Source: a virus
Taxonomy: Duplodnaviria > Heunggongvirae > Uroviricota > Caudoviricetes
Virus record (IMG/VR): IMGVR_UViG_2721755498_000006
Coordinates: 1 to 52,298 of that record
Reading direction: 5' to 3' (one strand)
Length of the DNA: 52,298 nt
Shown in pieces: positions 1 through 50,930 of the stretch. Made by a program: the position numbers and the translations under genes. The stretch's first letter is position 1. Every line of letters begins with the position of its first letter. Under the pieces are notes generated by a model. The model saw nothing but the letters and a program-made list of their open reading frames with translations. It searched no databases and had not been told where the DNA came from.

Positions 1-3000
1 ATGCTGAAACGTCTGTTAAGTAAACTGACGGGAAACCGTCAGCAGATAGAACATCACCTAAAAAATCAGTACCAGGTTGAGGAAAACGGACTTAGCTTTC
101 CGCTATCGCTGGTTGATGATTCGCAGCTTTGGGCACTGGCATCCTGGCTAGAACAACTGGCTGAAGAAGACTATCTGATATCACTTACAGACCGGTGGTT
201 GTTGAGTTGGGACGCACTGTATCGCCTGCTGGAGGATGAGGAACATGCCAGCAGCCTGCCTCTTATCGGTGTACCTGACGTACTGCCTTTACGCGCAAGC
301 CTGAGTTCACGAGGAGCATTAAGCGATAGCGATTTTCGCGTCTGGATTGCTGAATGGGCTACGCTTCCAGCCCGCAAGCCGATCCGTTTCAGTCGTACCG
401 GTGCCATTTTAACCCATGAAAATCAGCAATACCTGTTATCGCGTGAAAACTGGGCACTCTTACAGGCAACAGAACAACTCAGTGCACAGAAAAATCAGAC
501 TCCTGGTGAAACCACTAACCAGTTGGGATGGGCCGCTATCCGCAAATGTGCGAAGCAAGCAGCCGCAAAATTTGATGATTATTTAGAAAAAACGCATGTC
601 GTCAAACCAACTTCATTGTCATTACGTCTGCGTAAAGCAACGGTTGCCGATACTGCTGTTATCGAAATTGAGCCCCATTTCGAGGACCAGCCTGCTAACT
701 GGCTAGGCAGTTTTGACAAAAACTCGCAGGTTCACGATAGCTACCGCATCCCTGGAGAGAATGGCGAACTCAGCCATGTCATTATCCCTCCCGAAGTGAA
801 AGAAGTCCTGAATTCAATACACTCGATTCCAGGCCGTCGAGTGGCCGGAAGCGAAGCGCTTTCCTTTGTTCGCAATCCTTATACCTTCCTGGGTGAAGAT
901 GCCGCCAGTGTTATTGCCCCTGAAGAACATGAACAGGCACTGTTTGATGCCAGGATTTTCTTTCATCATTTCAGGTTGATACCGCAACTGAATGCGGAAA
1001 ATAAGATCGCAGAAGTTACGCTGGTACTTGAGCCTGTTTCACCTGTTCCCCAGCCAGAAATCACTTTTGGGTTCTCAGCCCCCCGGGAGCTGGATAAATT
1101 CATACAGCAACTCGGTATTAGCGTCGCTGCACAGATGCCTGCCGGTTCATGGCAAGGTTACGAGCTGGAATTAAGTCAGTTCACTGAACAGCAGTGGCAC
1201 GATTGCCAGGCACTTCTAACTCGCTGGCAGCAAGAAATAGAAGGAAAAGAATTTAGCGATGTGCTGGATATTGCGAAGTATGGCGATCGCGTGATTGGCA
1301 TTGGTGAATTTGAAAAAATCTCCTCTCCCTGGCTGACCAAAGCGCAGAGTGAAAACTGGCTTCCAGATGACATCGATTTCTCCGCGTTTTCAGTCGAAAC
1401 ACTGTCTGGCTGGCAACCTGAAAACCTTCACCATTTCGATGAACTGCAGGAGAGAATTACTCAGGCAGAAGCTGTAGGTGAAACGCATATCACCGCACCA
1501 TGGAATGACAGCCAATTACCGTTGGATGCTGCTAAAACCTTCAGTAAGAACTGGGAAAAACAGCAAAGCACTGCAAATGAATCTCAAGGCAACGTTGCAG
1601 ATAAAACGGCCCGAGCCGTACTCAAAATTGAGCAGAATATTGAAGAAACGGCCTACATCAAACAGCGCCGCAATTCACTCCTCAATGCGCGTCATGCCGA
1701 GCCTGAAATTCCTCTGAGCCTTAAAGAGCATATCCGACTCAAAGACCATCAACGTGAAGGCGTAGCCTGGCTCCAGCAACTCTTCCTTCGTTCACCTGAG
1801 GAAACCGCAGGTTGCCTGCTGGCGGATGATATGGGGCTTGGGAAAACGCTGCAAATTCTGAGCTTCCTGGTATGGTTCATTGAAAAATTCCCGCAAGAAC
1901 CGCCCAGTCTCATTGTTGCTCCTGTCTCTCTTTTAGATAACTGGGAACGTGAACTGGACAATTTCTTCTATACCGCAGGAATACCGGTATTGAAATTGTA
2001 TGGCGAGACCATTAAAGCGGTGAAATATCCCAAACAGGCTATCCCTGCTCATCTGCAATCTCAGGGGATCAAAAACCTGCTTAAACCTGGCTGGCAGGGT
2101 GAGGCGAAAATCATCCTGACAACCTACGAAACGCTTCGCGACCAGGAGTTTTCTCTGGCACGCCAGCCGTGGTCCATTATGGTGTGCGACGAGGCACAAA
2201 AAATAAAAAACCCAGCTGCGTTAATCACACATGCGGCCAACGCGGTACAAGCCAGGTTTAAAGTGGCATGTACAGGAACACCTGTCGAAAACACACTTGT
2301 CGACCTGTGGAGCTTATTTGATTTTGCCCAGCCAGGATTGTTAGGGGCACTAAATGAATTTGGTAAACACTATGTTCGCCCCATCGAGAACGAAGATGGC
2401 CGCGATACGGAACGGTTGGAAAGCCTGCGAGCGCTGATAGAACCTCAGACTTTACGCCGAACCAAAGAAGAGGTTGCGCGTGATTTACCTCAGAAAATTG
2501 AAGTGGAAAGCTGCAAGCAATTGACGTTGTCTGGCGTGCAAAAACAGCTCTACCTTTCGTCCGTTGCAAATTGGCAACAACAGCAAGCACTGAGCGAAGG
2601 GATGCAGCAGGCCGGAACCGGTATGTTAGGTTTGTTACACCGACTGAAACTCATCTGTGCACACCCTGCAGTAGTTAATCCAGAACCACGTTTTCGTGAT
2701 AACTCACCCAAGCTTAACTGGCTGCTGAAAATACTCGCAGAACTAAAACACACCACGAAAGATAAGGTCATTATTTTTACGGAGCTTCGAGATTTACAGC
2801 GCGAACTTCAACATGCGATCCACCAAAAGTTTGGTTTCCGCCCTGTCATTATCAATGGTGATACCAGCACTAAAAGTCAAAGTCAAAACAGCCGCCAGCG
2901 CCTGATTGATGATTTTCAGGCTCAGCCTGGGTTTGGGGTGATTATTCTCTCTACGGTTGCCGTCGGATTCGGCGTTAACGTCCAGAAAGCCAATCATGTT

Positions 3001-3243
3001 ATTCATTTCACTCGCTGCTGGAACCCAGCCAAAGAAGATCAGGCAACAGACCGGGCGTACCGAATTGGGCAAACTAAAGATGTGTATGTCTATTACCCGA
3101 CGGTGAAGGACACTGAAATCACCACATTTGAAGAAACACTGGATGACCTTCTGCAGCGTCGACGTGCATTGGCCAGAGATATGCTCTGCGCTACTCCCGA
3201 TTTGAGTGGTGCGGATTTTGAGGCCATTTTGAAGGGGGCTTAA
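1..3243 (+). CDS. SNF2/Swi2-family helicase-ATPase with ~580-aa N-terminal domain of unknown function; ORF begins at the first base of the window
   Basis: 1080-aa ORF; motifs LLADDMGLGKT (motif I), VCDEAQKIKN (DEAQ box) and QATDRAYRIGQ (motif VI) in the C-terminal half; no motif recognised in the N-terminal half; not RapA-like at the N-terminus. Confidence 0.85.
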   Translation: MLKRLLSKLTGNRQQIEHHLKNQYQVEENGLSFPLSLVDDSQLWALASWLEQLAEEDYLISLTDRWLLSWDALYRLLEDEEHASSLPLIGVPDVLPLRASLSSRGALSDSDFRVWIAEWATLPARKPIRFSRTGAILTHENQQYLLSRENWALLQATEQLSAQKNQTPGETTNQLGWAAIRKCAKQAAAKFDDYLEKTHVVKPTSLSLRLRKATVADTAVIEIEPHFEDQPANWLGSFDKNSQVHDSYRIPGENGELSHVIIPPEVKEVLNSIHSIPGRRVAGSEALSFVRNPYTFLGEDAASVIAPEEHEQALFDARIFFHHFRLIPQLNAENKIAEVTLVLEPVSPVPQPEITFGFSAPRELDKFIQQLGISVAAQMPAGSWQGYELELSQFTEQQWHDCQALLTRWQQEIEGKEFSDVLDIAKYGDRVIGIGEFEKISSPWLTKAQSENWLPDDIDFSAFSVETLSGWQPENLHHFDELQERITQAEAVGETHITAPWNDSQLPLDAAKTFSKNWEKQQSTANESQGNVADKTARAVLKIEQNIEETAYIKQRRNSLLNARHAEPEIPLSLKEHIRLKDHQREGVAWLQQLFLRSPEETAGCLLADDMGLGKTLQILSFLVWFIEKFPQEPPSLIVAPVSLLDNWERELDNFFYTAGIPVLKLYGETIKAVKYPKQAIPAHLQSQGIKNLLKPGWQGEAKIILTTYETLRDQEFSLARQPWSIMVCDEAQKIKNPAALITHAANAVQARFKVACTGTPVENTLVDLWSLFDFAQPGLLGALNEFGKHYVRPIENEDGRDTERLESLRALIEPQTLRRTKEEVARDLPQKIEVESCKQLTLSGVQKQLYLSSVANWQQQQALSEGMQQAGTGMLGLLHRLKLICAHPAVVNPEPRFRDNSPKLNWLLKILAELKHTTKDKVIIFTELRDLQRELQHAIHQKFGFRPVIINGDTSTKSQSQNSRQRLIDDFQAQPGFGVIILSTVAVGFGVNVQKANHVIHFTRCWNPAKEDQATDRAYRIGQTKDVYVYYPTVKDTEITTFEETLDDLLQRRRALARDMLCATPDLSGADFEAILKGA

Positions 3244-3764
3244 CCGATACGAGTGGCAATACCACCAGCAGTCGAACCGATTCATTTGAAACGACACGTA
3301 GCCGCGATGGATCTGTATCACCTACCGACAGCTTGGGAAAGTCCCGAATTACAAATGTTCAGGGGAATACCATAACCTGCCGGACTTATTCGTTTGGAAC
3401 GACGTGTTACGACTTAGTCCGAGGGAAACATGCCAGGTAAAAACCGAATATCCATCCTCAGCTTTAGCAAATACCTCCCCATACTCGCTACTTCATATTG
3501 AGAAGATATTGTGTTGCTCATATTGCTTTGAGCATGCTCTTCAGCGTTTACATGTGGATCGTACTACCCTGATGATCCGATGCGTTGTTTACTGCTTTTA
3601 ACCTCTATATACAAAACCCCCACTAAATATTTTTCTGAGACTAACGGTAAATCATTATCTATCATGTAGTTACGATAGAATTGCATGTATCTGGCACAAA
3701 ATAAGGTTTCATTACGTTCTATCTTGTTAAATATAAAGGGATCATTTCCTCCCAAAGTCACAAT

Positions 3765-4478
3765 CTACAGGAACGGTTTCAATAACATCGGATCAATGAT
3801 CCCCTCTGGAAAATCGTAAAGATGCTGACGCGCTGTCGTCTCCTTCAGTCCCGCTGCTTTAGCAAAATCGCTGACGGAGTAGCCTTCAGGCCACCAGCTC
3901 TGATAGTAAATATCAAAATACTGCCCCCACTCTGCGCTCATCGGGCGTCGTGATAGCTGTCGGGCAGCAGATTTCTGAGTCAGTTGATATTTCACAATAT
4001 ATTCACCAACGCTAAGACCATTCTCGACTTTTTCGCGCTGAAACTGGCGACGATGGTAAACCCAGAACAGCGCCCTAAGCGATGCGCCACCAGCTTTATG
4101 CAGCGCATTCCAGGCTCTGCGGTGCGGTATCCTGTAGCGTTGCGCGTATTCGGTTTGTGTAATGCCATGCAGAATCGCTTCACGACGATAATTTTGCTTG
4201 TGCCAGGCCCAGTCAATCTTCCAGCGGTCGCATCGCTCGCTGTAGTCCTGAGCTCTTTTCTGGCGGGCAACAGGCAACTTCAGAAAGTTTTCAAAGAGTG
4301 TATCCAGCGAGCACGCAACCGGATGGATATGCTGCGTTTGCAGACGTATCTCATTGGGCGTAAGTGGGCGATATTCGAGCCCCGTTAGACGTTCCAGCCG
4401 CCATTCATGATAGTTTTTTCGACGACGTCTATTCCCGGCATACTTCAAACGATACAGTGCCTGTTCAGCGTATGACAT
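3765..4478 (-). CDS. hypothetical protein; C-terminal ~55 aa paralogous to the C-terminus of the upstream 360-aa protein
   Basis: 237-aa ORF; 14-nt overlap with upstream gene (translational coupling); shared C-terminal block (W..YFD.YY..WP.G.SV...A...L...TAR..L.D.P). Confidence 0.5.
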   Translation of the reverse strand: MSYAEQALYRLKYAGNRRRRKNYHEWRLERLTGLEYRPLTPNEIRLQTQHIHPVACSLDTLFENFLKLPVARQKRAQDYSERCDRWKIDWAWHKQNYRREAILHGITQTEYAQRYRIPHRRAWNALHKAGGASLRALFWVYHRRQFQREKVENGLSVGEYIVKYQLTQKSAARQLSRRPMSAEWGQYFDIYYQSWWPEGYSVSDFAKAAGLKETTARQHLYDFPEGIIDPMLLKPFL

Positions 4479-5547
4479 ATTGAATCTCCTTTTGAAGCCA
4501 ACCCCTCAGGATGCCAGGTGAGATAACTGCTGGTGGATAATCGCAGAGATAACGCCGGGCTGTTGAAGGATTTAAATCGTGCCAATTACAGTACTGAGCG
4601 ACGCTGACTCCGCAGGGCCAGTAATTGTCGTAATAGCGATCGAAATGCCGTAGCCAGTGAGGAGATAGTTGAGGTTTTTCAGCTGCTTTTCCGCGCTGAT
4701 ACAGCTTCAGTAAACGCTGAATGCTGCGAATCTGGCTATTTGTTTCATAATCCAGAGAGTCAATCTCTGCGGGTTCATTATCACCGAGAAATAACGGGTC
4801 AAGCTTACCTGGCAGCGGACAGTAACGTTCGGCAGGTGGCTGGCATTGCTTGAGTTTGGCTGGAGTCCTGGGTTTAGGCTTTTGTTGCTTCAGTACTTTG
4901 TAGTGCTTGCGTCCGTACAACGGAATATGTTTTGCGATTCCGGTCTTAGTGGCGTATTTAGCGAAATAGCTCAACCTTAACAGAAGCTCCCCCAGGGTCT
5001 GCGAATCGCGCTTATGGACCATGTAGTATCCGTTTTTGGGAAACCAAACTTTCCCGTTAGTTGCCGAACTCCAGGTCTTCTCCACCAGCCCATTCAATAC
5101 CTTTGGTGTACGTATGTGGTTCCCGTCCACCATGAGCACACAGTGATAGTGCTGCGCTGTCGCTTTGTCATGCTCACGAACCCAGAATATATCGAAAAAA
5201 GACTTTGGATAACGAGCACGTAATACCTGGGCTAATTGCTGGCAGAAGTCCGAAATAACCTGATTGTCATCTGTATAGCTCTTGAGATGTAAATCATAGC
5301 GAACAGCCAGAAAACGCGAAGTCCGCAGATAGGTTTGATTCACCGTATCAAAAAGGGCTTCCATGATCCTGGAATCATACTCTCCCTCTGCATGAAGTAT
5401 CGGCCAGAACACTTCGTCATACAGAAAGTATCCTTGAGCATTAATCCACTGAGCTGCTTGCGAGGCCGGTATATTATTAATTACCGATGGTTTCTCGAAC
5501 TGATGATCTCTATATTTTTCTAATTTATTCATTGAGTTACACAACAC
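4465..5547 (-). CDS. HUH-motif rolling-circle Rep-like protein (inovirus gpII / YfjJ-YagK-like as I recall the family)
   Basis: 360-aa ORF with HYHCVLMV (HUH) and downstream YFAKYATK (YxxK) motifs; directly downstream of alpA as in CP4-type islands; family name from memory, not searched. Confidence 0.5.
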   Translation of the reverse strand: MLCNSMNKLEKYRDHQFEKPSVINNIPASQAAQWINAQGYFLYDEVFWPILHAEGEYDSRIMEALFDTVNQTYLRTSRFLAVRYDLHLKSYTDDNQVISDFCQQLAQVLRARYPKSFFDIFWVREHDKATAQHYHCVLMVDGNHIRTPKVLNGLVEKTWSSATNGKVWFPKNGYYMVHKRDSQTLGELLLRLSYFAKYATKTGIAKHIPLYGRKHYKVLKQQKPKPRTPAKLKQCQPPAERYCPLPGKLDPLFLGDNEPAEIDSLDYETNSQIRSIQRLLKLYQRGKAAEKPQLSPHWLRHFDRYYDNYWPCGVSVAQYCNWHDLNPSTARRYLCDYPPAVISPGILRGWLQKEIQYVIR

Positions 5548-5599
5548 TTCATTCAGTGCTAATACAGCGTTTTAATCTGTAATTGTATTTCACGTTGTT

Positions 5600-5872
5600 T
5601 CACTGGATAAAAAAAAGCCGGACAAACCGGCTTAGGATGCAAAATGAATCTAATAAGTGTGATTTACTCAACCACTCCTCATACTGGCTGGCAGTCCAGC
5701 CGAGTGTTCTCCCTTGAATTTTACGGGGCTCAGGAAAAACCCCCTCATTCACCCAACGCCAGAGAGTAGTACGGCTGACTGCCAGCAGCTCAATCATGTG
5801 GTTGATTCGAATCAATCGCTGGGGCTCATGGAAGAAACGGATATTGCTTGAAAAGGTGTTTTCTTGTTCCAT
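5600..5872 (-). CDS. alpA: AlpA-family HTH regulator (prophage/island excision regulator type)
   Basis: 90-aa ORF; core RLIRINHMIELLAVSRTTLWRWVNEGVFPEPRKIQGRTLGWTASQYEEWL matches the AlpA pattern. Confidence 0.65.
   Translation of the reverse strand: MEQENTFSSNIRFFHEPQRLIRINHMIELLAVSRTTLWRWVNEGVFPEPRKIQGRTLGWTASQYEEWLSKSHLLDSFCILSRFVRLFFIQ
5609..5632 (-). terminator. intrinsic terminator (AGCCGG-N5-CCGGCU followed by U8) lying inside the last codons of the alpA ORF
   Basis: hairpin plus U-run read on minus strand; ORF stop codon is ~7 nt beyond the U-run. Confidence 0.5.
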
Positions 5873-5993
5873 AAAGATTCCTTAAATCAGGAGTAACGAT
5901 ATGAAACAAGAGTAATTTTCTGATCGCGTGAGGTCGTGCATACCTTAGCAATGGAATCCGAATACCTTTACTATTTAGCTGATAAATATAACT

Positions 5994-6851
5994 TTATTTT
6001 TTACTCTTTTTCCGTTTTTCGTGTCCGGCAGTACGTAATGATTCGAATCCTTGAAAGGTTTCATCCTGAAGGATATTTCTTGTCTCGCGTAAATTTCGTT
6101 TGATAACCTCTGCGCTATGCGGAGGCTCCTTAATGGTAGGCCAGAAAAATGCCGCATACTTATAGAGCAGTTTTTCGAGATTACTGGCATTTGGCAGGCA
6201 ATGACCATAGCTATCAGGCTTGAGCTTACCCTCTGCATCCAGCTTGTAGAGTATAGCGATGACTGCCCGATAGACTTCTTCACGCATTGCAGCATAGGAC
6301 TCTCCTCGTGCTGCAGGTTCACGGGCAGCGGCTAGCAGCTTATCCCTCTCAACTTTCAGGCTCTCAATCTCCTCCTCAAGTTTTCTCACATAATCGCTGA
6401 CAGCAGGAGCTGGGGATTTTTCAATATCAATGCCCAGTACCCGGATAATATCGGCACGGCGCAGTGCGAACTGCTCCAGATCGGCTTCACCAAGGGGGTA
6501 TTTTTGTACTGAAGTGATCATCTCTTCGGGGCTGTCATAACGCCCGTTAGTCACCCTAAGCAATGCAGGAGTTAACTCTGGTCGTCCACTGGAATAATCA
6601 TACTTTGGTATAAATCCAAACTCTCGCCATGAGTCCTGAAGAGATTCACGTTTGTAAAGAGGAGGCTTATGTTCATTCAGGCATTTGAGTAGCTGAAGGC
6701 TGAGCACATTAAGCGATTGATCCGGGAATCGTTTTTGCAGTGCTATGTAAAGCTCGTAAATAGAAATAAACCCAGTATCCGCTTCTGCTACCTGGCGCTG
6801 CTTTTGTCTTTGCTGCTCAATAATCTCATCAAAACTCATTTTCAAACCCAT
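5994..6851 (-). CDS. hypothetical protein (predicted coiled-coil, Lys-rich C-terminus)
   Basis: ORF track 5994..6896; start moved to MGLKM preceded by GGAGAAG; no recognised motif. Confidence 0.4.
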   Translation of the reverse strand: MGLKMSFDEIIEQQRQKQRQVAEADTGFISIYELYIALQKRFPDQSLNVLSLQLLKCLNEHKPPLYKRESLQDSWREFGFIPKYDYSSGRPELTPALLRVTNGRYDSPEEMITSVQKYPLGEADLEQFALRRADIIRVLGIDIEKSPAPAVSDYVRKLEEEIESLKVERDKLLAAAREPAARGESYAAMREEVYRAVIAILYKLDAEGKLKPDSYGHCLPNASNLEKLLYKYAAFFWPTIKEPPHSAEVIKRNLRETRNILQDETFQGFESLRTAGHEKRKKSKK

Positions 6852-7077
6852 CAAACACTTCTCCGATACGGCGGCACATTCTGCAACACCATGCATTATA
6901 TAGGGATTTTATTCACGCGTTCGGGAATGAAACTACGATACTACCCAACTGATTGTCAGATGATTAGCGGAAAATGGTGGTTGGCTATGCCGTGTTAAAC
7001 AAGTACGCCAGTAAGTACGCGAAAAGAAATTCAGTAGATTTTATTGAAAGAGACTTGAGCTAACTTATTGATTTTAA

Positions 7078-7126
7078 TGGTGCCGATAATAGGAGTCGAA
7101 CCTACGACCTTCGCATTACGAATGCG
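7078..7126 (-). repeat. att copy: 49-nt direct repeat of the thrW 3' end (plus ~17 nt of matching flank at 7061-7077)
   Basis: tggtgccgataataggagtcgaacctacgaccttcgcattacgaatgcg identical to 50855-50903. Confidence 0.9.
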
Positions 7127-7184: not shown

Positions 7185-8288
7185 TTGCCACAGTTCGTTA
7201 GGAATCAGACAGAAATGGCGACTATACGCAAACGTGGTAACTACCAATGGGAAGCTCAAATCCGTAAACGTGGTTTTCCCTCTCAAACCAAAACCTTTAA
7301 CACCAAAGTAGAAGCAGAAGCTTGGGCCAAAATGATCGAGTCAGAAATGGCGAGAGGAGTTTGGCTTAGCCGCAGCGAAGCGGAATCTACGACATTGTAT
7401 GAAGCCCTAACGCGATATGAAAAAGAGATTGTTCCCGACAAAAAAGGGGCAGTGCAAGACCGATCATTGGTGCGGATACTAAAAGCCACTCAGCTGGCGA
7501 AAAACTATATGGCCAGCATCAGGAGTGCCGATGTCGCCAAGCTGAGAGATGAATGGTTGAAAATCTATGCTCCTGCAACCGTTTTAAGGCGTTTGGCCTT
7601 ACTTTCTCATGTATTCAATGTTTCGCGGAAAGAATGGGGCATGGAGAGCCTGCTGAACCCCGTAGAGGCCATTCGCAAACCCCAACCCAAGAACTCCAGG
7701 ACCAGACGCCTGGAAGCGCTGCCTGTAGTTTCTGAGAAAACCGGTGTTACGTCAGGAAAGCAAATAGCCAACGAGATCGAACATATCATCGCCGCAACAC
7801 ATTCATTAGTATTGCCAGCAATCATTCTTCTGGCGTTAGAGACAGCCATGCGCCGTAGCGAAATCGCAGAGCTTCGATGGCGCTTTATCGATCTTGATCG
7901 GCGAGTTGCACATCTGCCGGATACTAAGAATGGTAATGCCCGCGATGTCCCTTTATCAACGAAAGCCATTACGATACTGTCCAGTCTCAAGGAACATTCT
8001 AAGCCAGCTGCTGATAAGGTTTTTGATATGCGTGCAGACGCGATTACCCGAGCTTTTGACCGAGCTGTAAAACGAGCCAGAGAACGATACGAGAAAACAA
8101 ACTCATTATGTGATGAATCTTTCCTTAAAGATTTAAGATTTCATGACCTTCGACATGAAGCAACTTCTCGACTTGCTGAAATTTTCCCTATGCATGAACT
8201 AACCAAAATTACAGGACATAAAGATCCAAGAATGCTAATGCGGTATTATCATCCAAAAGCTGAAGATTTGGCGTTAAAGTTGAAATAA
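7185..8288 (+). CDS. int: tyrosine recombinase / integrase of the middle integrative element
   Basis: R..HxxR..Y catalytic signature (ETAMRRSE, HDLRHEATS, MRYYH); starts ~60 nt from att copy; likely true start at MATIRKRG (~7215); TGCCACAAT-A-TTGCCACA arm-type repeat just upstream. Confidence 0.85.
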   Translation: MPQFVRNQTEMATIRKRGNYQWEAQIRKRGFPSQTKTFNTKVEAEAWAKMIESEMARGVWLSRSEAESTTLYEALTRYEKEIVPDKKGAVQDRSLVRILKATQLAKNYMASIRSADVAKLRDEWLKIYAPATVLRRLALLSHVFNVSRKEWGMESLLNPVEAIRKPQPKNSRTRRLEALPVVSEKTGVTSGKQIANEIEHIIAATHSLVLPAIILLALETAMRRSEIAELRWRFIDLDRRVAHLPDTKNGNARDVPLSTKAITILSSLKEHSKPAADKVFDMRADAITRAFDRAVKRARERYEKTNSLCDESFLKDLRFHDLRHEATSRLAEIFPMHELTKITGHKDPRMLMRYYHPKAEDLALKLK

Positions 8289-8297
8289 GGACGTTGT

Positions 8298-8987
8298 ATG
8301 GATTATAAAAATAAGTTAGTTGATGCATCACCAAAATTAAACAACCCTCAACTATTGGCTATAATATACTTAATACCTTTTGGATACTTGATTGTAGAAA
8401 ACCCATTATGGCTAGAAAATATATACATTGCCGCTCCAATTTTCCTATCATCTATAGCTTTATTAACCAGTGTATACATAGGATATCGTGATTTATTAAA
8501 TAAAGTATTTAATAATGCAGTAGTTAAATGGGGCGTAACTGGCTTTACATATTCCGTATGCTTATGGATCGCAAAGTTTAAGCTTGACATAGCTTATGGT
8601 ATAGTCCCAGAAAACCTTAATTACTCGACATTAGCTTATGCTTTCATGCTCTCATTTCCAATAGGGGCAATGATTTGTGCAATTACAGTCTATATATACA
8701 TATTTTTGCGAGATGTATCCCCAGCAAAAATAGTAATATCCTCTATGATTTCAGTATATATTGGAAGCTTGGCTCAACATCATATACAGGTGAACAATCT
8801 TCCTGAAAAAATAATATTAATAGGACTTATAATTATGGTCCCCTATAACATGGTCAATTTAGCTAGTTCATTAGTTATTAAAAGGAAATTTAATTTTAAT
8901 CGTTTAGTATCAGGCTTATCCCTTTTTGCTGTGTCAGTTGCTCTTTTTATTATTAGCATGACAGCGGTAATGACTCCAACTTATTGA
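8298..8987 (+). CDS. AT-rich polytopic membrane protein, 3' end interrupted by IS1
   Basis: 229-aa hydrophobic ORF; reading frame runs into IS1 left end at 8966 so the last residues are IS1-encoded. Confidence 0.5.
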
Positions 8988-9484
8988 TAGTGTTTTATGT
9001 TCAGATAATGCCCGATGACTTTGTCATGCAGCTCCACCGATTTTGAGAACGACAGCGACTTCCGTCCCAGCCGTGCCAGGTGCTGCCTCAGATTCAGGTT
9101 ATGCCGCTCAATTCGCTGCGTATATCGCTTGCTGATTACGTGCAGCTTTCCCTTCAGGCGGGATTCATACAGCGGCCAGCCATCCGTCATCCATATCACC
9201 ACGTCAAAGGGTGACAGCAGGCTCATAAGACGCCCCAGCGTCGCCATAGTGCGTTCACCGAATACGTGCGCAACAACCGTCTTCCGGAGCCTGTCATACG
9301 CGTAAAACAGCCAGCGCTGGCGCGATTTAGCCCCGACGTATCCCCACTGTTCGTCCATTTCCGCGCAGACGATGACGTCACTGCCCGGCTGTATGCGCGA
9401 GGTTACCGACTGCGGCCTGAGTTTTTTAAGTGACGTAAAATCGTGTTGAGGCCAACGCCCATAATGCGGGCTGTTGCCCGGCAT
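8981..9484 (-). CDS. insB: IS1 InsB (transposase made as InsAB' by -1 frameshift)
   Basis: 167-aa [29 protein letters not shown]...; overlaps insA. Confidence 0.95.
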
Positions 9485-9678
9485 CCAACGCCATTCATGG
9501 CCATATCAATGATTTTCTGGTGCGTACCGGGTTGAGAAGCGGTGTAAGTGAACTGCAGTTGCCATGTTTTACGGCAGTGAGAGCAGAGATAGCGCTGATG
9601 TCCGGCGGTGCTTTTGCCGTTACGCACCACCCCGTCAGTAGCTGAACAGGAGGGACAGCTGATAGAAACAGAAGCCAC
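9403..9678 (-). CDS. insA: IS1 InsA
   Basis: 91-aa [43 protein letters not shown]... Confidence 0.95.
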
Positions 9679-9809
9679 TGGAGCACCTCAAAAACACCAT
9701 CATACACTAAATCAGTAAGTTGGCAGCATCACCTCAATCCGCATGACTTTAAAAAAGACAATTTTTAGAAATAAGCCGGATAAAAAAATAGCTTTATCCG
9801 GCACTCATA

Positions 9810-10760
9810 TTACAACCAGTTCTTCCGCTTAAAGTACAGATACGGTGCCAGGCCCGCGAGGATCATAAAGATAATCGCGGCAGGGTAGCCGAAGCTCCAC
9901 TTCAGTTCTGGCATAAACTCAAAGTTCATGCCATAGCTGGAAGCAACGAGCGTCGGCGGCAGGAATACCACGGATACCACCGAGAAGATTTTGATGATGC
10001 GGTTCTGCTCGATGTTGATAAAACCCATTGCCGCCTGCATCAGGAAGTTCACCTTCTGGAACAGGGATTCGTTATGCGGCAGCAGGGATTCGATATCTCG
10101 CAGGATTTCACGCGCCTGCTCCAGTTGCCCACCCGGTAAACGCGCTTTACGCACCAGGAAGTTGAGCGCGCGCTGGGTATCCATCAGACACAGGCGAACT
10201 TTCCAGCCGATATCTTCCAGTTCCGCCAGAGTGGAGAGCGCCTCGTCGTACTCATCGCCCTGATGCCCTTCCATAATCACCCGGCTCAACTGCTCCAGGT
10301 CGCTATAGATATTTTCAATTTCATCTGCCAACTGTTCGATTTTGGTTTCGAACAGATCCAGCAGCAACTCGTAGGCGTTACCGTCTACCATCGACTGGCT
10401 ACGGGCACGCATACGATACAGACGAAAAGCGGGCAGTTCACGCTCACGCAGAGTAAACAGACGACCATCACGGATGGTAAATGCCACAGTGGAGTTACCG
10501 GCGTGATCTTCCGCATCTTCAAAGAAGAAGAAGGAGTGAATATGCAGGCCGTCGTCGTCTTCAAAGAAACGTGCCGATGCTTCGATGTCTTCCAGTTCCG
10601 GGCGGGTTGCCAGGCTCTGGCCAAGTTCAGATTGTAAGCGCAGTCGCTCGTCGTCGTCCGGTTCGACAAGATCAATCCATACTGCATTTACAAGGGGTTG
10701 TGACTCTTCGACTTCCAGCCGGGTCAGTCGGTTATTTTCCAGTTGAAATGCGCTCAGCAT
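9810..10760 (-). CDS. corA: magnesium/cobalt transporter CorA
   Basis: [34 protein letters not shown] ... [11 protein letters not shown] ... matches E. coli CorA as I recall it; GMN motif present. Confidence 0.95.
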
Positions 10761-11129
10761 GACCGGGACTCCCAATGCTTAAAATATCGGACAGTTCGGT
10801 GGGCACACAGAAACAAATTGGGTTTCAGACCATTAAACAGCCTGACTCAGCGCGACGGGAAAAATTGAGGTCGCTGACAACCGCTAAGGCTATCAGCAAA
10901 AAGGGATAGCCTTAGGAGTTGATCCTGGATGACAGGATAGTGAGCCAGTATCTACTGGGTGTGTCCAAGGCGAATGTCCTCTTAGAGTGATCGTGCGCGC
11001 ATGTTACGCCAGCAAAATTTTGCCGTCAACACGCAACAGAACACCACAGAACAATAGTTGAACTTCGCGCTTTTTGGTACTCGTCAAGGTCGCTAACAGG
11101 ATAAAAAAATCCCACATCCAGGACCTATA

Positions 11130-11417
11130 ATGGCGCATCAGCTACTCATTGGTAAAGGAATGATCACCTTGAATCTCAAACGGATTTTTCTCGCCCTCAC
11201 CTTACTTCCCTTGTTTGCTGTTGCCGCTGATGATTGCGCACTCTCAGATCCGACGCTGACCGTACAGGCGTATACCGTTAATCCTCAAACAGAGCGGGTG
11301 AAAATGTACTGGCAAAAAGCCAATGGCGAAGCGTGGGGAACGTTACATGCTCTGCTGGCGGATATTAATAGTCAGGGTCAGGTGCAGATGGCGATGAACG
11401 GCGGCATCTATGATGAA
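11130..11417 (+). pseudogene. 5' fragment of a signal-peptide protein gene (yigE-like by position upstream of corA) truncated by IS1
   Basis: ORF with signal-peptide-like N-terminus runs into IS1 copy 2; identification as yigE is inference from K-12 gene order. Confidence 0.45.
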
Positions 11418-11471
11418 GGGATGCTGCCAACTTACTGATTTAGTGTATGATGGTGTTTTTGAGGTGCTCCA

Positions 11472-11747
11472 GTGGCTTCTGTTTCTATCAGCTGTCCCTC
11501 CTGTTCAGCTACTGACGGGGTGGTGCGTAACGGCAAAAGCACCGCCGGACATCAGCGCTATCTCTGCTCTCACTGCCGTAAAACATGGCAACTGCAGTTC
11601 ACTTACACCGCTTCTCAACCCGGTACGCACCAGAAAATCATTGATATGGCCATGAATGGCGTTGGATGCCGGGCAACAGCCCGCATTATGGGCGTTGGCC
11701 TCAACACGATTTTACGTCACTTAAAAAACTCAGGCCGCAGTCGGTAA
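11472..11747 (+). CDS. insA: IS1 InsA
   Basis: identical translation to 9403..9678. Confidence 0.95.
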
Positions 11748-12169
11748 CCTCGCGCATACAGCCGGGCAGTGACGTCATCGTCTGCGCGGAAATGGACGAA
11801 CAGTGGGGATACGTCGGGGCTAAATCGCGCCAGCGCTGGCTGTTTTACGCGTATGACAGGCTCCGGAAGACGGTTGTTGCGCACGTATTCGGTGAACGCA
11901 CTATGGCGACGCTGGGGCGTCTTATGAGCCTGCTGTCACCCTTTGACGTGGTGATATGGATGACGGATGGCTGGCCGCTGTATGAATCCCGCCTGAAGGG
12001 AAAGCTGCACGTAATCAGCAAGCGATATACGCAGCGAATTGAGCGGCATAACCTGAATCTGAGGCAGCACCTGGCACGGCTGGGACGGAAGTCGCTGTCG
12101 TTCTCAAAATCGGTGGAGCTGCATGACAAAGTCATCGGGCATTATCTGAACATAAAACACTATCAATAA
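11666..12169 (+). CDS. insB: IS1 InsB
   Basis: identical translation to 8981..9484. Confidence 0.95.
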
Positions 12170-12302
12170 GTTGGAGTCATTACCCTCATTCCAAAAAGAA
12201 ACCTGCCACAATTTTGCCACACTCACAACGCGCAAAAATGCACATTTGTGTTAAGAAAAGCAAAACAACGCAACAGTAACCAGATGATTTTATTAGAAAA
12301 AA

Positions 12303-12348
12303 TGGTGCCGATAATAGGAGTCGAACCTACGACCTTCGCATTACGAAT
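12303..12348 (-). repeat. att copy: 46-nt direct repeat of the thrW 3' end
   Basis: tggtgccgataataggagtcgaacctacgaccttcgcattacgaat identical to 50855-50900; preceded at ~12200-12222 by TGCCACAATTTTGCCACA arm-type repeat. Confidence 0.9.
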
Positions 12349-12436
12349 CTGTAGCACCAATCATAACTATCTGTTTTAGCAAGCATTAACCGCATTCACC
12401 AAGCAATAGTTGATGGCACAAACAGAAAGTTGATGC

Positions 12437-12769
12437 ATGATGTTGTCATGTGTATGTCACAAATACGGCACAACGATCTTCAAACATGTAGCCACCCAGC
12501 ATAGAAGAGCACAAAGCCTTGCAATCAAGTGCAAAACTTTGTGTACCATAGTTTTTCCTTATCAACTACCGCAAGTATCGATCGATGGAGGCTTGGATGT
12601 TAAATTTCATGACTTTGATCACTTGGTGCATCACGAAACTATCGAAGTGCAACTCGCTCATGCCAACGGCGGATCTGTGCGTGGAATATACAACCATGCT
12701 CAGTATCTAGATAAGCGCAGAGAAATGATGCAGTGGTGGGCTGACTGGCTTGATGGAGAGAAAACATAG
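12437..12769 (+). pseudogene. integrase remnant: only the last ~55 codons resemble a P4-family tyrosine integrase C-terminus
   Basis: ...VQLAHANGGSVRGIYNHAQYLDKRREMMQWWADWLD typical integrase tail including catalytic Tyr; upstream part of ORF has no integrase features. Confidence 0.6.
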
Positions 12770-12964
12770 GACAGGTTTTCAGCCAGTGTCAGTGAAATGG
12801 ATCTCCTGTGCATGAGCAAATTAGAATAACATTGCATAGTCACAGTATCGATCATGATTCACAGCAATGATAGAATACAAATAATTTTAACATGTTTCTA
12901 CCGAAACAATCGCACCTGTAGCATTCGTCTTTTCTGATGTAATTAACATTAAATGGTATAGCAT

Positions 12965-14752
12965 ATGGAACTGAAATATAGACCCGAAATTGATGGGTTG
13001 AGAACATTAGCTGTTTTACCTGTTATCTTTTTTCATGCAGGCGTTCAATGGATTCCTGGAGGTTTTCTTGGAGTAGATGTTTTTTTTGTTATTAGTGGTT
13101 TTTTGATTACCAGCATTTTGCTAAAAGAATGCAGCAATGGAACATTTACATTCTCTGGATTTTATGAGAGAAGGGTTCGCAGAATTGCACCAGCATTAAT
13201 TTTAATGACATCAGTAACATTCATTATATCATTATTTGTGATGGTCCCATATGACCTAAAAAATCTTGGTCAATCAGTAGTTGCAACTATTTTTTCAGCA
13301 AACAATATATTGTTGTACCTAACATCAGGATACTGGTCTACAGCATCTGAATTTAAACCATTATATCACACATGGAGTCTGGCTGTAGAAGAACAGTATT
13401 ATCTTGTGGCACCTATAATAATATATATTATTTATTCAATTAATCATAATAAATTAATAAAAAATAGTTTTATATTCATGCTGTTAGTATCAATTGCCAG
13501 TTTTTTATTTGCAGCAATTGAGACAACACATAATAGAGAGTTTTCATTCCTCATGCTACCCTCTAGAGCCTGGGAGATCGCACTCGGCGGGATTGCTGCT
13601 ATTGCTCATTCGAAAATAAAAAGAAAAAGCAATGCATTATCATTCATTGGTTTTTTGTTAATAATATTTAGTTATTTTCTTGTTAGAGGAAAAATATCAC
13701 ACCCAGGACTCGAAACATTGATGCCAGTGATTGGCACATGTTTATTTTTGATGCATGCCAACTCACATAAAGGCGTAGGAAAGATAATGTCAATAAAACC
13801 AATGGTATTATGTGGTATGATAAGTTACTCATTATACCTTTGGCATCAGCCAGTTTTTGCATTTATAAGACTAAACTCTCAGTTCGAGCCATCAACAATA
13901 TATTTTATTGTTTCTATACCTTTTATTTTTATTATATCTTTTGCATCATATTTCTTTGTTGAGAAACCATTTAGAAACAAGAAAAAAACTTCTACAAAAA
14001 AGATTGTATCATACGCAATAGCATCGTCGTTAGTGTTATCAATATCTGGTTGGTTGATGCACAAGACATATGGATTGCAGAATATCAGGCCAGAGCTTGC
14101 CTATGGCGGCAATCCTCAGGAGTATGTGGACAGCCCTAAACGATTAAAGAATATTGACTTTTCAGATAATGGAAAGAAAATATTAATCATGGGTAATTCA
14201 TATGCGCGAGATATCATTAATGTAATATCTACTAAATTAAACCTTGATGATCTTAATATTGTTTATTTTGAAGGAAATTGCTACGAATCAATAAATAACT
14301 CTCACAAATTAGATTATTACTTGAAAGACGCAAACATTATTATTTACTCTGACAACTGGGGTGGGGAGGAGTATAATAACAGCGTAGAGAAATTAAAATA
14401 CTGCTACGATAACGTAAAGTTAGCATCCAACGCTAAGGTATACATGGTAGGGACAAAAAACTTTGGGTATAACAATAACTTTGCCACTAACTTATCTAAA
14501 AATGATCGAATCTTAGCGAAAACATACCCACTATCAAAGTATTTACAGTTCAATAATGATGCAAAATTAGAGTTAGGAAATGATTATATAGATGTATTTA
14601 GTCTTATTCAAGATGAGAATGGGATGGTTAATGTTTTTGATGGTGATGGTAAGTTTTTATCATATGATACCAATCACTTAACTAAATATGGGGCAAGTTA
14701 CTTAGGTGATATTTTATCAAAAAAAACAGATTTGTTTCATAGTTTAAAATAA
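12965..14752 (+). CDS. O-antigen acyltransferase (acyltransferase-3 membrane domain plus C-terminal SGNH-like domain; OafA/Oac type), lysogenic conversion gene
   Basis: 595-aa AT-rich ORF; N-terminus ...LRTLAVLPVIFFHAGVQ...GVDVFFVISGFLIT..., multiple TM segments, long C-terminal soluble domain; located between tailspike and att as P22 gtr / Sf6 oac. Confidence 0.8.
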   Translation: MELKYRPEIDGLRTLAVLPVIFFHAGVQWIPGGFLGVDVFFVISGFLITSILLKECSNGTFTFSGFYERRVRRIAPALILMTSVTFIISLFVMVPYDLKNLGQSVVATIFSANNILLYLTSGYWSTASEFKPLYHTWSLAVEEQYYLVAPIIIYIIYSINHNKLIKNSFIFMLLVSIASFLFAAIETTHNREFSFLMLPSRAWEIALGGIAAIAHSKIKRKSNALSFIGFLLIIFSYFLVRGKISHPGLETLMPVIGTCLFLMHANSHKGVGKIMSIKPMVLCGMISYSLYLWHQPVFAFIRLNSQFEPSTIYFIVSIPFIFIISFASYFFVEKPFRNKKKTSTKKIVSYAIASSLVLSISGWLMHKTYGLQNIRPELAYGGNPQEYVDSPKRLKNIDFSDNGKKILIMGNSYARDIINVISTKLNLDDLNIVYFEGNCYESINNSHKLDYYLKDANIIIYSDNWGGEEYNNSVEKLKYCYDNVKLASNAKVYMVGTKNFGYNNNFATNLSKNDRILAKTYPLSKYLQFNNDAKLELGNDYIDVFSLIQDENGMVNVFDGDGKFLSYDTNHLTKYGASYLGDILSKKTDLFHSLK

Positions 14753-14800
14753 CCACCCCCATTGGAGGTGGCGCTGAGGTATAATTATAATAATAGAATC

Positions 14801-16693
14801 CTAAGCCACCTCACCCCTCCATGAGCAATCAACAATACCTCCGCGCACCATCTTCCACCGCATGTTGTACGATGCCGAAGGAACAAGCTTTATACCAACA
14901 CCAAGATTGGGAACTGTTTCAACTGATTTAATCCAAGCGTTATTTGAATTACTGTACGTGAATGTTAATTGCTCTGTATTAGTGTAGAAGTCATCAGTGC
15001 ATGTTGTTATTGCCGCTGAAGTATTTGCGTTATCCGCCCCGTTATAATAATACAGCTCAAAGGCTATGTAGCCGTGGTTCTTCATCCTCGTAGCAAACAC
15101 GCCGCCCGTGTTTCTTGCCGCGATACCACCCTGTTTGAATGTGGTGTTACGCTCACCTTGCACGCTTCCCGCATTGATAGTCTGGAACGGAGTAACATCA
15201 GCAGAACTGTACTTGTCATTGTACAACTGCATAGCCCCGCCCATTTTATCTGTGTAAAACACATAAGATTCAAGGTGGTAAGGGGATTGGTTTTTAATGG
15301 TATTATACGATTTTATCTCGTTATAGAAATCGGTGTCATTTGTAATATCCTTAAAGGAACTTATGATTAGGTTACTTTCCCACGCAAAGGCTACATAGCT
15401 TCCATCACCCATACCAAAAAACTCCTTAGCAAAATTTATTTGCTTTGTTTTATCAGAGAAGCTTGTTGGTTCAGTGAACATTCCGAGACAAGGCACTATC
15501 TTTGAATTTGGGGATTTATATTGCATTTCAGCCCAGCACAGTACAGCGGTCCTCTTGTTTTCGGCAGAATCCCTAGAAGAGTATGCATATGCATCCACAA
15601 AAATCAAATCGTACCCAACACCGTTATACCCAGAAGGGACTGTTTGGTTATCAAACGAAAAAATCCCGTTGTCAGCTATACATAAAGCTTTACTGGTAAA
15701 TGCCTTGAATGCATTTATACGAGTGGCTTGAGCAGTTGCAGATACCGAATGGTTTTGCGGTTCATCAAACAAGTAATAGCCGATAACGCAATCTCTGCCG
15801 TCAAGGTCTGTAGCCGGGGTGTTTGTCTGCCCGTACACAGTACCACCAAGTATAAGTTTCAATCCAACAGCTTCCGCGGCGTTACAAGCTTTTTCCATAT
15901 TCCCGCCGTTTGTCCACGCTTGACCGTAGTGGATTAGTGTATTAAACCCCGCGGTTTTTAGTTGTAACATGTCACAAATATCAAACACGCGATGAACGTA
16001 TACAGCCTTCATTAGTGAATGGTCTACAGGTATTTCACTATCAAGTTCACATGGAACGTTTGGTAGTCTTGTGTATGTAATCGTTGCTTTTCCGGTAATC
16101 CTTGCACCTTGTGGCCAGTCAAAACTAGATAATGTCGTGGCACCGCTGATATGCGCAACCCCTGTTTTACCTATGGCTGCAAGAACATAAGGCTTAGCGT
16201 CCTCTCCACTACCATATATATATCCATACAAAGAAATATCAGACCAATTATAGCTAGAATTATACTTTATTGAGTCTATTTCTTCTTGTACTGTTTTACC
16301 AGTTGCGGTCCCTACAAGAGATGCCCCGTTATCTGAAGAGATAGTCTGCCTAAACTGATCCGGGTCATACTTAAGCACATTAGGAAAATAGAACTGCTGC
16401 GCCCCATACGCATCATAAACAGCCATAGAATGGCCTTGCACAGTTACGAACTTGGCAATCTGTCCGTTATATACCGGATATCCAGCGGCGTTAATGATGA
16501 TTGGTTGCGGAACAGGAACGTGAGAACCGTCTTCATTCTCTACATAAATCTGAATCTGGTTTTCAGGATTTACCGGGTCAGTGTCAATTTTTCCGATATA
16601 AATTTTGCCATTGGCTACGGCTTTAAAAGAACGCGCCATAGTGAAGAGTTGCGAAGGCATGCTTACCACAATATTTGCGGTGATATCTGACAT
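14801..16693 (-). CDS. tailspike protein: P22 gp9-like N-terminal head-binding domain fused to a different receptor-binding/enzymatic domain
   Basis: [59 protein letters not shown]... matches P22 tailspike N-terminus; remainder unlike P22 endorhamnosidase as I recall it; start set at internal Met with GGAG SD. Confidence 0.9.
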
Positions 16694-16814
16694 TTCATTG
16701 CTCCAGACGAATGATATGATGCAACCATGATGTGATTGCATACCGAAATGGTACTATTGAGTATTTATCCAGTAGGTTACGATGCCATTCCACCCAACTG
16801 GTGAGGCATCAAGG

Positions 16815-33063: not shown

Positions 33064-33139
33064 TGGTGCTGGTTAACGGACTTGAACCGCTACCCATTCG
33101 CTTACAAGGCGACTGCTCTACCATTGGAGCTAAACCAGC
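33064..33139 (-). tRNA. tRNA-Thr (anticodon UGU) in the Q-S interval
   Basis: hand-folded cloverleaf: 7-bp acceptor GCUGGUU/AACCAGC, D-stem GCUC/GAGC, T-loop UUCAAGU, anticodon loop CUUGUAA, 3' CCA encoded. Confidence 0.75.
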
Positions 33140-33144
33140 ATATT

Positions 33145-33219
33145 TGGCGGGACAGCGTGGACTCGAACCACGATAAGAAGGTTAACAGCCTTCCGTAATG
33201 ACCTTTATACGACTGACCC
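33145..33219 (-). tRNA. tRNA-Asn (anticodon GUU)-like, slightly imperfect acceptor and D stems
   Basis: anticodon stem GAAGG/CCUUC, loop CUGUUAA, T-arm CGUGG-UUCGAGU-CCACG, CCA encoded; one U-U mismatch in acceptor stem. Confidence 0.55.
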
Positions 33220-50840: not shown

Positions 50841-50854
50841 CTTATTGATTTAAA

Positions 50855-50930
50855 TGGTGCCGATAATAGGAGTCGAACCTACGACCTTCGCATTACGAAT
50901 GCGCTGCTCTACCAACTGAGCTATATCGGC
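50855..50930 (-). tRNA. thrW: tRNA-Thr (anticodon CGU), intact; attR-side att site
   Basis: GCCGATATAGCTCAGTTGGTAGAGCAGCGCATTCGTAATGCGAAGGTCGTAGGTTCGACTCCTATTATCGGCACCA on minus strand. Confidence 0.95.

Follow-up and report, generated by a model that had tools for sequence, protein, structure and literature searches.

An IS1-flanked corA segment in a thrW-integrated island is very probably a composite transposon that lost its target-site duplication to a later adjacent deletion

The stretch of DNA analysed here (52,298 bp, hereafter the window) contains three exact copies of a 48-bp att sequence of thrW, at 7076, 12301 and 50853, where none is expected by chance. The third lies inside thrW itself (50855-50930), and the first two delimit a small thrW-integrated island that hosts the segment studied here, in agreement with the original prediction, which had placed the segment within a thrW array. 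One boundary of the island is the distal att copy (7076-7123, minus strand), a 3' fragment of the tRNA-Thr gene thrW. It is followed on the plus strand by a gene for a tyrosine integrase (7185-8288; Pfam Phage_integrase, E=1.9e-26), annotated as a site-specific integrase in the genomes N9 and EC01; for the identical gene in N9, RefSeq sets the start at the equivalent of 7215. Next comes a gene for an island membrane protein (8298-8965, plus strand), which encodes 296 aa when intact and is cut here at about codon 223. Its reading frame continues into the adjoining IS1 and stops at 8987, and the protein collection has the chimeric product in 964 blocks. The final 9 bp of the truncated gene, CATGACAGC (8957-8965), are the target site of the insertion. 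On the other side of the IS1-flanked segment are the last 116 bp of the island (12185-12300, plus strand) and the proximal att copy (12301-12348, minus strand), another thrW 3' fragment, which closes the island. A neighbouring acyltransferase gene always occurs, in other contigs, in a prophage context beside yfdC/intS and never in a thrW context.

Two inverted IS1 copies (8966-9733 and 11418-12184) enclose 1,684 bp of chromosomal DNA from E. coli. The positions of the terminal repeats bear out the predicted orientation of the copies and fix the exact outer ends of the unit at 8966 and 12184. The left copy (minus strand, 768 bp, IS1A type) has its outward-facing IRR at 8966-8988 and its inward-facing IRL at 9711-9733, with insA at 9403-9678 and insB' at 8981-9484. 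The right copy (plus strand, 767 bp) has an intact outer IRR at 12162-12184, insA at 11472-11747 and insB' at 11666-12169. The terminal inverted repeats of about 23 bp (GGTGATGCTGCCAACTTACTGAT / GGTAATGACTCCAACTTATTGAT) are both exact in the left copy; in the right one the IRR is exact and the IRL lacks the T at position 3 (GGTGATG to GG-GATG; GG-GATGCTGCC), which is the sole difference between the two copies. Both have an insA reading frame of 91 aa and an insB' reading frame of 167 aa, the A-run motif TTAAAAAAC is visible, and the identical copies in N9 are annotated as 'IS1A family transposase, programmed frameshift'. Their length, their terminal repeats and their insA/insB' frames with a -1 frameshift motif identify both as members of the IS1 family. 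No IS1 ends were found elsewhere in the window (chance expectation 0). Inverted IS1 copies with two intact IRR ends facing outward fit the definition of a composite transposon.

The passenger (9734-11417) comprises a complete corA, ysgD, the entire corA-yigE intergenic region and codons 1-96 of yigE. Its identity to K-12 is 99.88% over 1,608 bp, and that to the corA of Salmonella is about 90%. A complete corA and a shortened yigE had been reported between the IS1 copies, and this is what we found. The corA gene (9810-10760, minus strand) encodes 316 aa, of which residues 27-312 match the CorA Pfam family (PF01544, E=5.4e-58), and has the GMN motif (YGMNF); its product is a predicted full-length CorA Mg2+/Co2+ channel. 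The allele, with L42 and A294, differs from the CorA of K-12 and from the native CorA of N9. The intergenic region (10761-11129, minus strand) is complete and holds the corA leader, ysgD (a small open reading frame at about 10912-10968, annotated in N9) and a promoter-like site at 11029-11001, revealed by a promoter/terminator scan. Downstream of corA are 76 bp (9734-9809, minus strand) with a terminator-like hairpin at 9775-9802. This 3' flank is colinear with the native DUF943-type locus of N9 and not with K-12. It represents a short variant of the inner junction, from which 22 bp (GAAAATAAAATAGAGAGAGTTT) of the ancestral long variant are gone; the long-variant passenger is colinear with the native N9 locus over 1,706 bp, with 2 mismatches. 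At the other end, yigE' (11130-11417, plus strand) retains the first 96 of 254 codons and ends with ...CATCTATGATGAA at the IS1 junction, which is common to all transposon copies examined (identical in the roughly 20 copies read). The native E. coli uvrD-yigE-ysgD-corA locus is colinear with the passenger, but there yigE is full-length and IS1 is absent.

A search of the window for target-site duplications of 5-14 bp around the unit returned none, as the original prediction had reported. The outer flanks are indeed unequal, but the left 9-mer had been misread as atgacagcg: the IS1 starts at GGTAATGAC, and the true 9-mer is CATGACAGC. The correction matters because this is precisely the duplication found in related genomes. 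In N9 and in three further assemblies (L017, L019 and L024), whose left junction is that of the window, a perfect 9-bp duplication of it brackets the whole unit. The intact open reading frame of the membrane protein can be rebuilt from the N9 flanks, and the reconstructed empty site of 240 bp is uninterrupted in 54 genomes, which have no corA there. A second insertion site is found in YZB902, where the unit lies in a lipocalin gene between the copies of an 8-bp duplication (GTTTTTTG), and where the rejoined halves give an intact open reading frame of 174 aa. The duplications at both sites are thus of the IS1 type, i.e., 8-9 bp. The earlier argument against a simple composite-transposon insertion finds no support, given the 9-bp duplication in four assemblies and the empty sites. 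It had also invoked the mismatch of the inner flanks, which carries no weight since the inner flanks of a composite transposon need no match. Elsewhere, too, most copies are without a duplication, so the direct evidence for transposition of the unit comes from these two insertion sites. Together, the independent sites, the duplications and the empty sites indicate that IS1-corA-ysgD-yigE'-IS1 moves as a composite-transposon unit.

The absence of the duplication in the window can be traced to the right end of the unit. The joint 12184|12185 is a deletion junction, at which 8,439 bp of the N9 arrangement, directly abutting the end of the right IS1, are gone; beyond it, window positions 12185-12349 are 100% identical to positions 8513-8677 of the N9 sequence (L003). 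The N9 genes missing from the window are those for a VbhA-family antitoxin, a HigA-family antitoxin and a DUF2326 protein, together with trbL, trbJ, traJ and the genes of an ABC-three-component system. A nested series of deletions starts from this one intact IS1 terminus (0, 463, 563, 693, 1,892 and 8,439 bp); that of the window is the longest, and those of 463, 563, 693 and 1,892 bp are seen in other assemblies. Nested deletions with one fixed IS terminus are the classic pattern of IS-promoted adjacent deletion. The details at the junction also fit such an event: the IRR is complete down to its final base (12184), and of the two duplicated 9-mers the left survives while the right is gone. The window thus lacks a duplication because the later deletion of 8,439 bp took its second copy. 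Intramolecular replicative transposition of IS1 (adjacent deletion) is the most likely cause of this loss, judging from the arrangement of the sequences. We consider it very probable that the segment represents one copy of a composite transposon built on IS1 and that the absence of the duplication is due to a secondary adjacent deletion.

The same end product would be expected if an extra IS1 had landed 116 bp from the att end of the island and if RecA-dependent recombination with the right IS1 had then removed the 8.4 kb. Many of the host genomes have about 40 or more IS1 copies. Insertion of IS1 at this end of the thrW array is a recurrent event, as strains TST3 and C1 carry an IS1B in the same island end. 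Yet the search brought up no genome with an IS1 at the very endpoint of the deletion, and five endpoints on one fixed terminus would need five extra insertions, each followed by recombination, which makes this scenario rather unlikely. The IS1B of TST3 and C1 was considered as the recombination partner and rejected, because it lies 57 bp further inside and represents unrelated events.

It is much less probable that an artefact of assembly, produced by collapsed or mis-joined identical IS1 copies, accounts for the right junction or for the arrangement as a whole. The 768-bp repeats are near-identical, a sequencing error might explain the one-base gap in the right IRL, and the junction IS1|CTCATTCCA is without independent support: exact-pattern scans of genome_contigs and metagenome_contigs gave no match to it, and a megablast search with 12100-14800 as the query found no complete E. 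coli genome record with a coverage of at least 80%. This joint was seen in one assembly and in none of the others searched. However, many independent complete assemblies contain the same passenger, with the same two inner junctions and the same left junction. Furthermore, the right flank is the terminus of the correct island, in the correct orientation and followed by the att copy, which would be unexpected from a random mis-join, and the window has no further IS1 copy that could have served as partner.

The unit is widespread. Of the 5,426 complete E. coli genomes, 171 (~3%) have the yigE'-IS1 junction, and we found the corA segment in at least 57 plasmids of PLSDB, whose hosts are E. coli, Salmonella and Enterobacter. 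There are at least eight distinct flanking contexts, plasmids included, and one strain has the unit on a plasmid as well as a chromosomal copy near fimA. The yigE'-IS1 junction had no match among species-representative genomes, and the transposon was not found in the phage collection, where the only matches were fragments of native corA from Salmonella or E. coli. Between unrelated strains, copies of the 1,684-bp passenger are only 0-1 SNP apart, and this near-identity, together with the identical yigE'-IS1 junction, points to a single origin.

These data also bear on the two alternatives offered by the original prediction: an additional, mobile corA generated by IS1, or a breakpoint of relocation or inversion of the native locus. 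The first is supported by the many chromosomal and plasmid sites and by N9, the strain whose structure is closest to that of the window, where the native yigF-...-corA-ysgD-yigE-uvrD locus is intact, free of IS1 and endowed with a different CorA allele; judging from this genome, the transposon corA is an extra copy. The second, under which an IS1-mediated inversion or translocation would have moved what is now the only corA of the genome, is highly improbable. IS1-rich genomes do undergo such rearrangements, but the ends of the passenger are the two IS1 junctions of every other copy, those on plasmids included, and N9 has the identical structure beside its native locus. Surplus corA places number about 172 across 5,433 records, which matches the number of junction-bearing records. 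Finally, both outer flanks are island sequence and not the neighbourhood of corA, the right one being simply the island 8,439 bp further on. Still less credible are two independent IS1 insertions around a corA already resident in the island, which is refuted by the empty-site islands (without any corA and with the 240-bp site unbroken), by the duplication that brackets the whole unit and by the presence of the unit at unrelated sites.

Under the composite-transposon reading, the history of the segment can be reconstructed step by step. The transposon would have originated in a single event, when two IS1 insertions, one in codon 96 of yigE and a second 98 bp beyond the 3' end of corA, enclosed 1,706 bp of a DUF943-type corA locus. 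It then moved as a whole to plasmids and to many sites on chromosomes, as its present distribution shows. In the case studied here, the N9-type arrangement and the empty sites indicate that it inserted into the membrane-protein gene with duplication of 9 bp (CATGACAGC), at a time when the host was a small thrW-integrated island with conjugative-transfer genes. Two deletions followed: one of 22 bp beside the inner end of the left IS1, evident from the comparison of variants, and one of 8,439 bp that begins exactly where the right IS1 ends on its outer side, evident from its product and probably due to adjacent deletion, which took the second copy of the duplication and nearly all the remaining island. 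As corA retains its own leader, promoter-like region and terminator, the transposon should supply its host with a second, normally regulated CorA. Likewise, the intact insA/insB' frames in both IS1 copies and the intact outer ends suggest that the unit should still be mobile.

Several known systems resemble this one. Tn2901, the IS1-flanked argF segment of E. coli K-12, has direct IS1 repeats and is about 11 kb long. It is alike in that a housekeeping chromosomal gene was caught between two IS1 copies and became an extra transposable copy, whereas the corA unit has inverted IS1 copies, spans 3.2 kb and is widespread on plasmids and chromosomes. Inverted IS1 copies are also found around the heat-stable enterotoxin gene of Tn1681, and direct ones around cat in Tn9; both transposons show target duplications of the IS1 type (8-9 bp) and IS1-promoted adjacent deletions. 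The arrangement of Tn1681 is that of the corA unit. The passengers of Tn1681 and Tn9 are toxin or resistance genes of obvious selective value, in contrast to the copy of a core-genome ion channel gene carried here.

A further relative is on plasmid R27, where an IS1-corA-yigE' segment has been annotated since 2000. It shares with the unit the left IS1, the long-variant junction downstream of corA and the passenger (1 mismatch in 1,677 bp). It differs in having a single IS1, in that yigE' ends 7-8 bp earlier, directly on the plasmid backbone, and in that the 8-bp repeat AAATTTAA flanks the unit. With only one IS1, and with yigE' abutting the plasmid backbone, the R27 form is therefore not the two-IS1 transposon of the window. 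It may have inserted via a surrogate IS1-like end in yigE, rather than by loss of the right IS1; the candidate for such an end is GATGCCGCC (compare GATGCTGCC in the IRL), in the yigE sequence ...GGCGGCATCT. In the IncHI1 plasmids R27 and pHCM1, the segment R0094-R0097 corresponds to insB, insA, corA and yigE, and the presence or absence of corA varies among IncHI1 plasmids (PMC7366339; bioRxiv 10.1101/334409). We found no named IS1-corA transposon in the literature, for which coverage of subscription journals was thin, just such IncHI1 gene listings and the R27 annotation.

Is the extra corA under selection? Both differences from the CorA of K-12 are non-synonymous, and the transposon corA is intact in all but one of the copies examined. 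A294 is a natural allele (497 records, native loci included), and L42 (V42L) occurs in 120 records, every inspected row of which is a copy on the transposon or on a plasmid. Positive selection on corA was considered on this basis and rejected: the natural occurrence of A294 leaves one substitution (V42L), insufficient as evidence. The 1.7-kb core-genome fragment is nearly unchanged from R27, a plasmid reportedly isolated in 1961, to about 3% of the complete E. coli genomes. We regard it as doubtful that the extra corA is anything but neutral, i.e., that a second or slightly altered subunit of the CorA pentamer is selected. If it were, possible routes would be an altered supply of Mg2+ or the handling of Co2+/Ni2+ in plasmid-bearing hosts, and corA would then stand as a rare example of a core gene for an ion channel that is disseminated as the cargo of a transposon.

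The locus is an ordinary instance of textbook IS1 behaviour, the product of two IS1 events, and the unit was already partly known through the annotation of R27. What seemed an anomaly, a housekeeping gene between IS1 copies in an island and without a target duplication, is explained, and its ancestral and intermediate states can be recovered from public genomes. For annotation, when a second corA or a yigE pseudogene is met beside IS1 in E. coli, Shigella or Salmonella plasmids, this transposon is the reading to adopt, in preference to a rearranged native locus. For the evolution of islands, it provides a clean natural series of nested IS1 deletions eroding a small island with conjugative-transfer genes.

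The corA segment of the window lies between two inverted copies of IS1. We set the IS1 boundaries by reading the sequence and searching for the IS1 terminal repeats, which places the left copy at 8966-9733 (768 bp, minus strand) and the right copy at 11418-12184 (767 bp, plus strand), both with the right terminal repeat (IRR) outward. The repeat finder reported a single large inverted repeat in the window, with arms at 8966-9736 and 11414-12184; being gapless, it overran the true IS1 ends by 3 bp because one base, the T at position 3 of the inner left terminal repeat (IRL), is missing from the right copy, where 11418-11420 reads GGGATGCTGCC, not GGTGATGCTGCC. This is the single difference between the two copies. 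The T is present in all other copies examined; its loss may be a real mutation disabling the inner end or a sequencing error. Each copy has insA (91 aa) and insB' (167 aa) frames, and the terminal-repeat search of the whole window found no IS1 ends beyond these two copies.

The 1,684 bp between them comprise a 76-bp stretch from downstream of corA with a terminator-like hairpin, a complete corA (316 aa; Pfam CorA match, E=5e-58; GMN motif in the translation), the whole corA-yigE intergenic region, ysgD included, and codons 1-96 of yigE (yigE'). The unit interrupts a membrane-protein gene, encoding 296 aa in its uninterrupted form, of a small island that carries a tyrosine integrase (7185-8288) and has an exact 48-bp copy of the thrW 3' end at each border (7076 and 12301); the sequence occurs once more at 50853, within thrW itself. 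The rest of the thrW array (12349-50852) is a P22-like prophage with an integrase remnant (12437-12769), a full integrase (49680-50840), two adjacent and presumably phage-borne tRNA genes, Thr(tgt) and Asn(gtt) (33064-33219), and an AT3-SGNH acyltransferase (12965-14752) adjoining a tailspike with a head-binding domain (14801-16741); in other genomes, the identical acyltransferase is part of a prophage located beside yfdC/intS instead. Upstream of the first att copy is a different island (1-6896). Its SNF2-family helicase ORF is large and continues beyond the window start (1-3243); the island also encodes a YagK/YfjJ-domain protein (4465-5547), and two further ORFs have no Pfam match. N9 and EC01 carry CP4-6-like genes (ykfI, yafW) at the position of this island.

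In the window, the sequences on either side of the unit share no direct repeat of 5-14 bp, which confirms the original prediction of a corA segment between inverted IS1 copies without flanking duplication. The outer flanks also mismatch as predicted, but the left 9-mer had been misread: since IS1 begins at GGTAATGAC, it is CATGACAGC. In E. coli N9, the unit occupies the window's exact left junction with CATGACAGC on both sides, and the same duplication surrounds it in three fetched loci (L017, L019, L024). The empty site, queried as 240 bp rebuilt from both flanks with a single CATGACAGC, is present in 54 complete genomes at a coverage of at least 80%, the matches listed being 100% identical. 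In YZB902, the insertion lies in a lipocalin gene and is flanked by an 8-bp duplication, GTTTTTTG; once the unit and one copy of the repeat are taken out, the gene reads as an intact ORF of 174 aa. These two sites with duplication (N9-type and YZB902) argue strongly that the unit moves as a whole, and the 9-bp duplication in N9, with empty sites elsewhere, leaves the earlier view that this is not a simple composite transposon unsupported. Duplications are missing around most other copies of the unit, which is unsurprising because the host genomes hold dozens of IS1 copies.

The native corA locus of N9 is intact and IS1-free, with the order yigF, corA 3' fragment, YPO3983-family gene, DUF943 gene, corA, ysgD, yigE, uvrD. 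Judging from its sequence, the transposon corA of this strain is an extra gene and not the native one moved elsewhere; together with the many sites at which the unit occurs, this supports the second, mobile corA originally proposed. The long variant of the passenger is colinear with the N9 native locus over 1,706 bp with two mismatches, so the donor would be an E. coli with a DUF943-type locus; the last 76 bp of the passenger differ from K-12, and identity to Salmonella corA reaches only ~90%. Both mismatches are non-synonymous, giving V42L (codon at 10635-10637) and G294A (9879-9881) in CorA, and they are also the only nucleotide differences from K-12 corA. A294 is a native allele too, its surrounding 61-mer occurring in 497 records that include single-copy genomes. 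The L42 61-mer occurs in 120 records, and all those listed are second copies or plasmid copies; the PKF8 copy carries V42. Downstream of the native corA of N9 (L036, 281-1945) is a two-gene islet, i.e., the DUF943 gene and the frameshifted YPO3983-family gene, and on its far side 137 bp of the corA 3' end are repeated. The islet looks as if it inserted into the end of corA, duplicating that end, a 61-mer of which is found at 6,988 places in 5,433 records.

When 8000-13200 was searched by megablast in 5,426 complete E. coli genomes, many records proved to have the unit, at varied chromosomal positions and with varied neighbours. Of these genomes, 171 have a full-length match to an 87-bp probe spanning the yigE'-IS1 junction, and 15 have the window's exact junction between IS1 and the corA-downstream stretch. 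A 61-bp corA probe hits 5,605 places in 5,433 records, i.e., ~172 more than there are records, with 19 of the extra copies on plasmids. The segment is present on at least 57 PLSDB plasmids, from E. coli, Salmonella and Enterobacter, and one strain has two copies, one plasmid-borne and the other chromosomal, near fimA. All loci read in detail (twelve fetched and ten more found via the chimeric island protein) have the same yigE'-IS1 junction, and their passengers are 0-1 SNP apart. With the many sites occupied, this indicates a single origin of the unit and its later spread.

The junction beside the left IS1 is more variable. The long variant, with 22 more bp downstream of corA (R27, EC01, L017, L019, L024 and others), is ancestral. 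The short variant (IS1|TCAATCC, window 9733|9734) is found in the window, N9 and their relatives. As both share the island site, the short variant would result from a small 22-bp deletion next to the left IS1, on its inner side, after insertion into the island. A medium variant, with 1 extra bp (IS1|TTCAATCC; comparison of L005-L010 and the window), ends 1 bp from the short one, and the carriers examined sit at different outer sites, which suggests that two small deletions arose independently with endpoints at a hotspot, or that copies exchanged sequence.

The missing duplication in the window would be explained by an IS-promoted adjacent deletion of 8,439 bp from the right IS1 end. In N9, the sequence that matches window 12185-12349, at 100% identity, lies 8,439 bp past the unit. 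The missing stretch, which stops 116 bp short of the island's att copy, holds genes for a VbhA-family antitoxin, trbL, trbJ, traJ, a HigA-family antitoxin, a DUF2326 protein and an ABC-three-component system. Among assemblies sharing the window's left junction, and counting from the last base of the right IS1, 0 bp are lost in N9, L017, L019 and L024 (9-bp duplication intact), 463 bp in EC01, 563 bp in YJ6, 693 bp in L016, L018 and L022, 1,892 bp in L021 and 8,439 bp in the window. Nested deletions that all start from one intact IS terminus are the hallmark of IS-promoted adjacent deletion. Less probably, the same product could have come from recombination with a second IS1 that was later lost; no IS1 was found at the exact deletion endpoint, only an IS1B at a distance of 57 bp in two strains, which is unrelated. 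The relocation or inversion breakpoint first envisaged finds no support, given the undisturbed native locus of N9 and a right flank made of N9 island sequence. The mechanism behind the window's arrangement is ordinary; the main residual uncertainty is the right junction (12184|12185), supported by one assembly, the window's own.

In strains TST3 and C1 (L037 and L038, 5318-6142), the IS1B joins ykgL directly to a point 57 bp inside the island end, the same end that forms the window's deletion joint; taken with the window deletion, this would mean that the distal thrW array was trimmed by IS1 more than once. CTC starts 5/12 different sequences abutting the right IS1 end (window at 12185, L002, L023, L009 and L010; CTCATTCCA, CTCACTAGT, CTCTTCGAT, CTCATGGAA and CTCATGCGT), a raw count that may point to preferred targets in IS1 deletion or transposition.

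Unlike the window unit with its two IS1 copies, R27-type plasmids have only the left IS1 and the passenger (R27, L013, NC_002305.1, 3367-5841; also pHCM1 and ~30 other IncHI1 plasmids). Their yigE' ends 7-8 bp before the transposon's junction (...GGCGGCATCT), directly adjoining the backbone, and an 8-bp direct repeat, AAATTTAA, flanks the whole; the site rebuilt with a single AAATTTAA is matched by 152 plasmids at a coverage of at least 80% (100% identical in the matches listed). Nearly precise excision may have removed the right IS1, or an IS1-like surrogate end in yigE (GATGCCGCC vs GATGCTGCC in the IRL) may have served for insertion of the unit. For R0094-R0097 of R27 (IncHI1), the listed genes are insB, insA and yigE, and corA lies between the latter two (PMC7366339); R27-like plasmids are noted as having or lacking corA (bioRxiv 10.1101/334409). 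In a literature search of incomplete coverage, we found no paper describing or naming the two-IS1 corA unit as a transposon. Tn9 and Tn1681 are classical IS1 composite transposons, and Tn2901 is a classical IS1-flanked argF segment. The two-IS1 corA unit is thus of a well-known kind, the IS1 composite transposon, and is itself new, or at least under-described.
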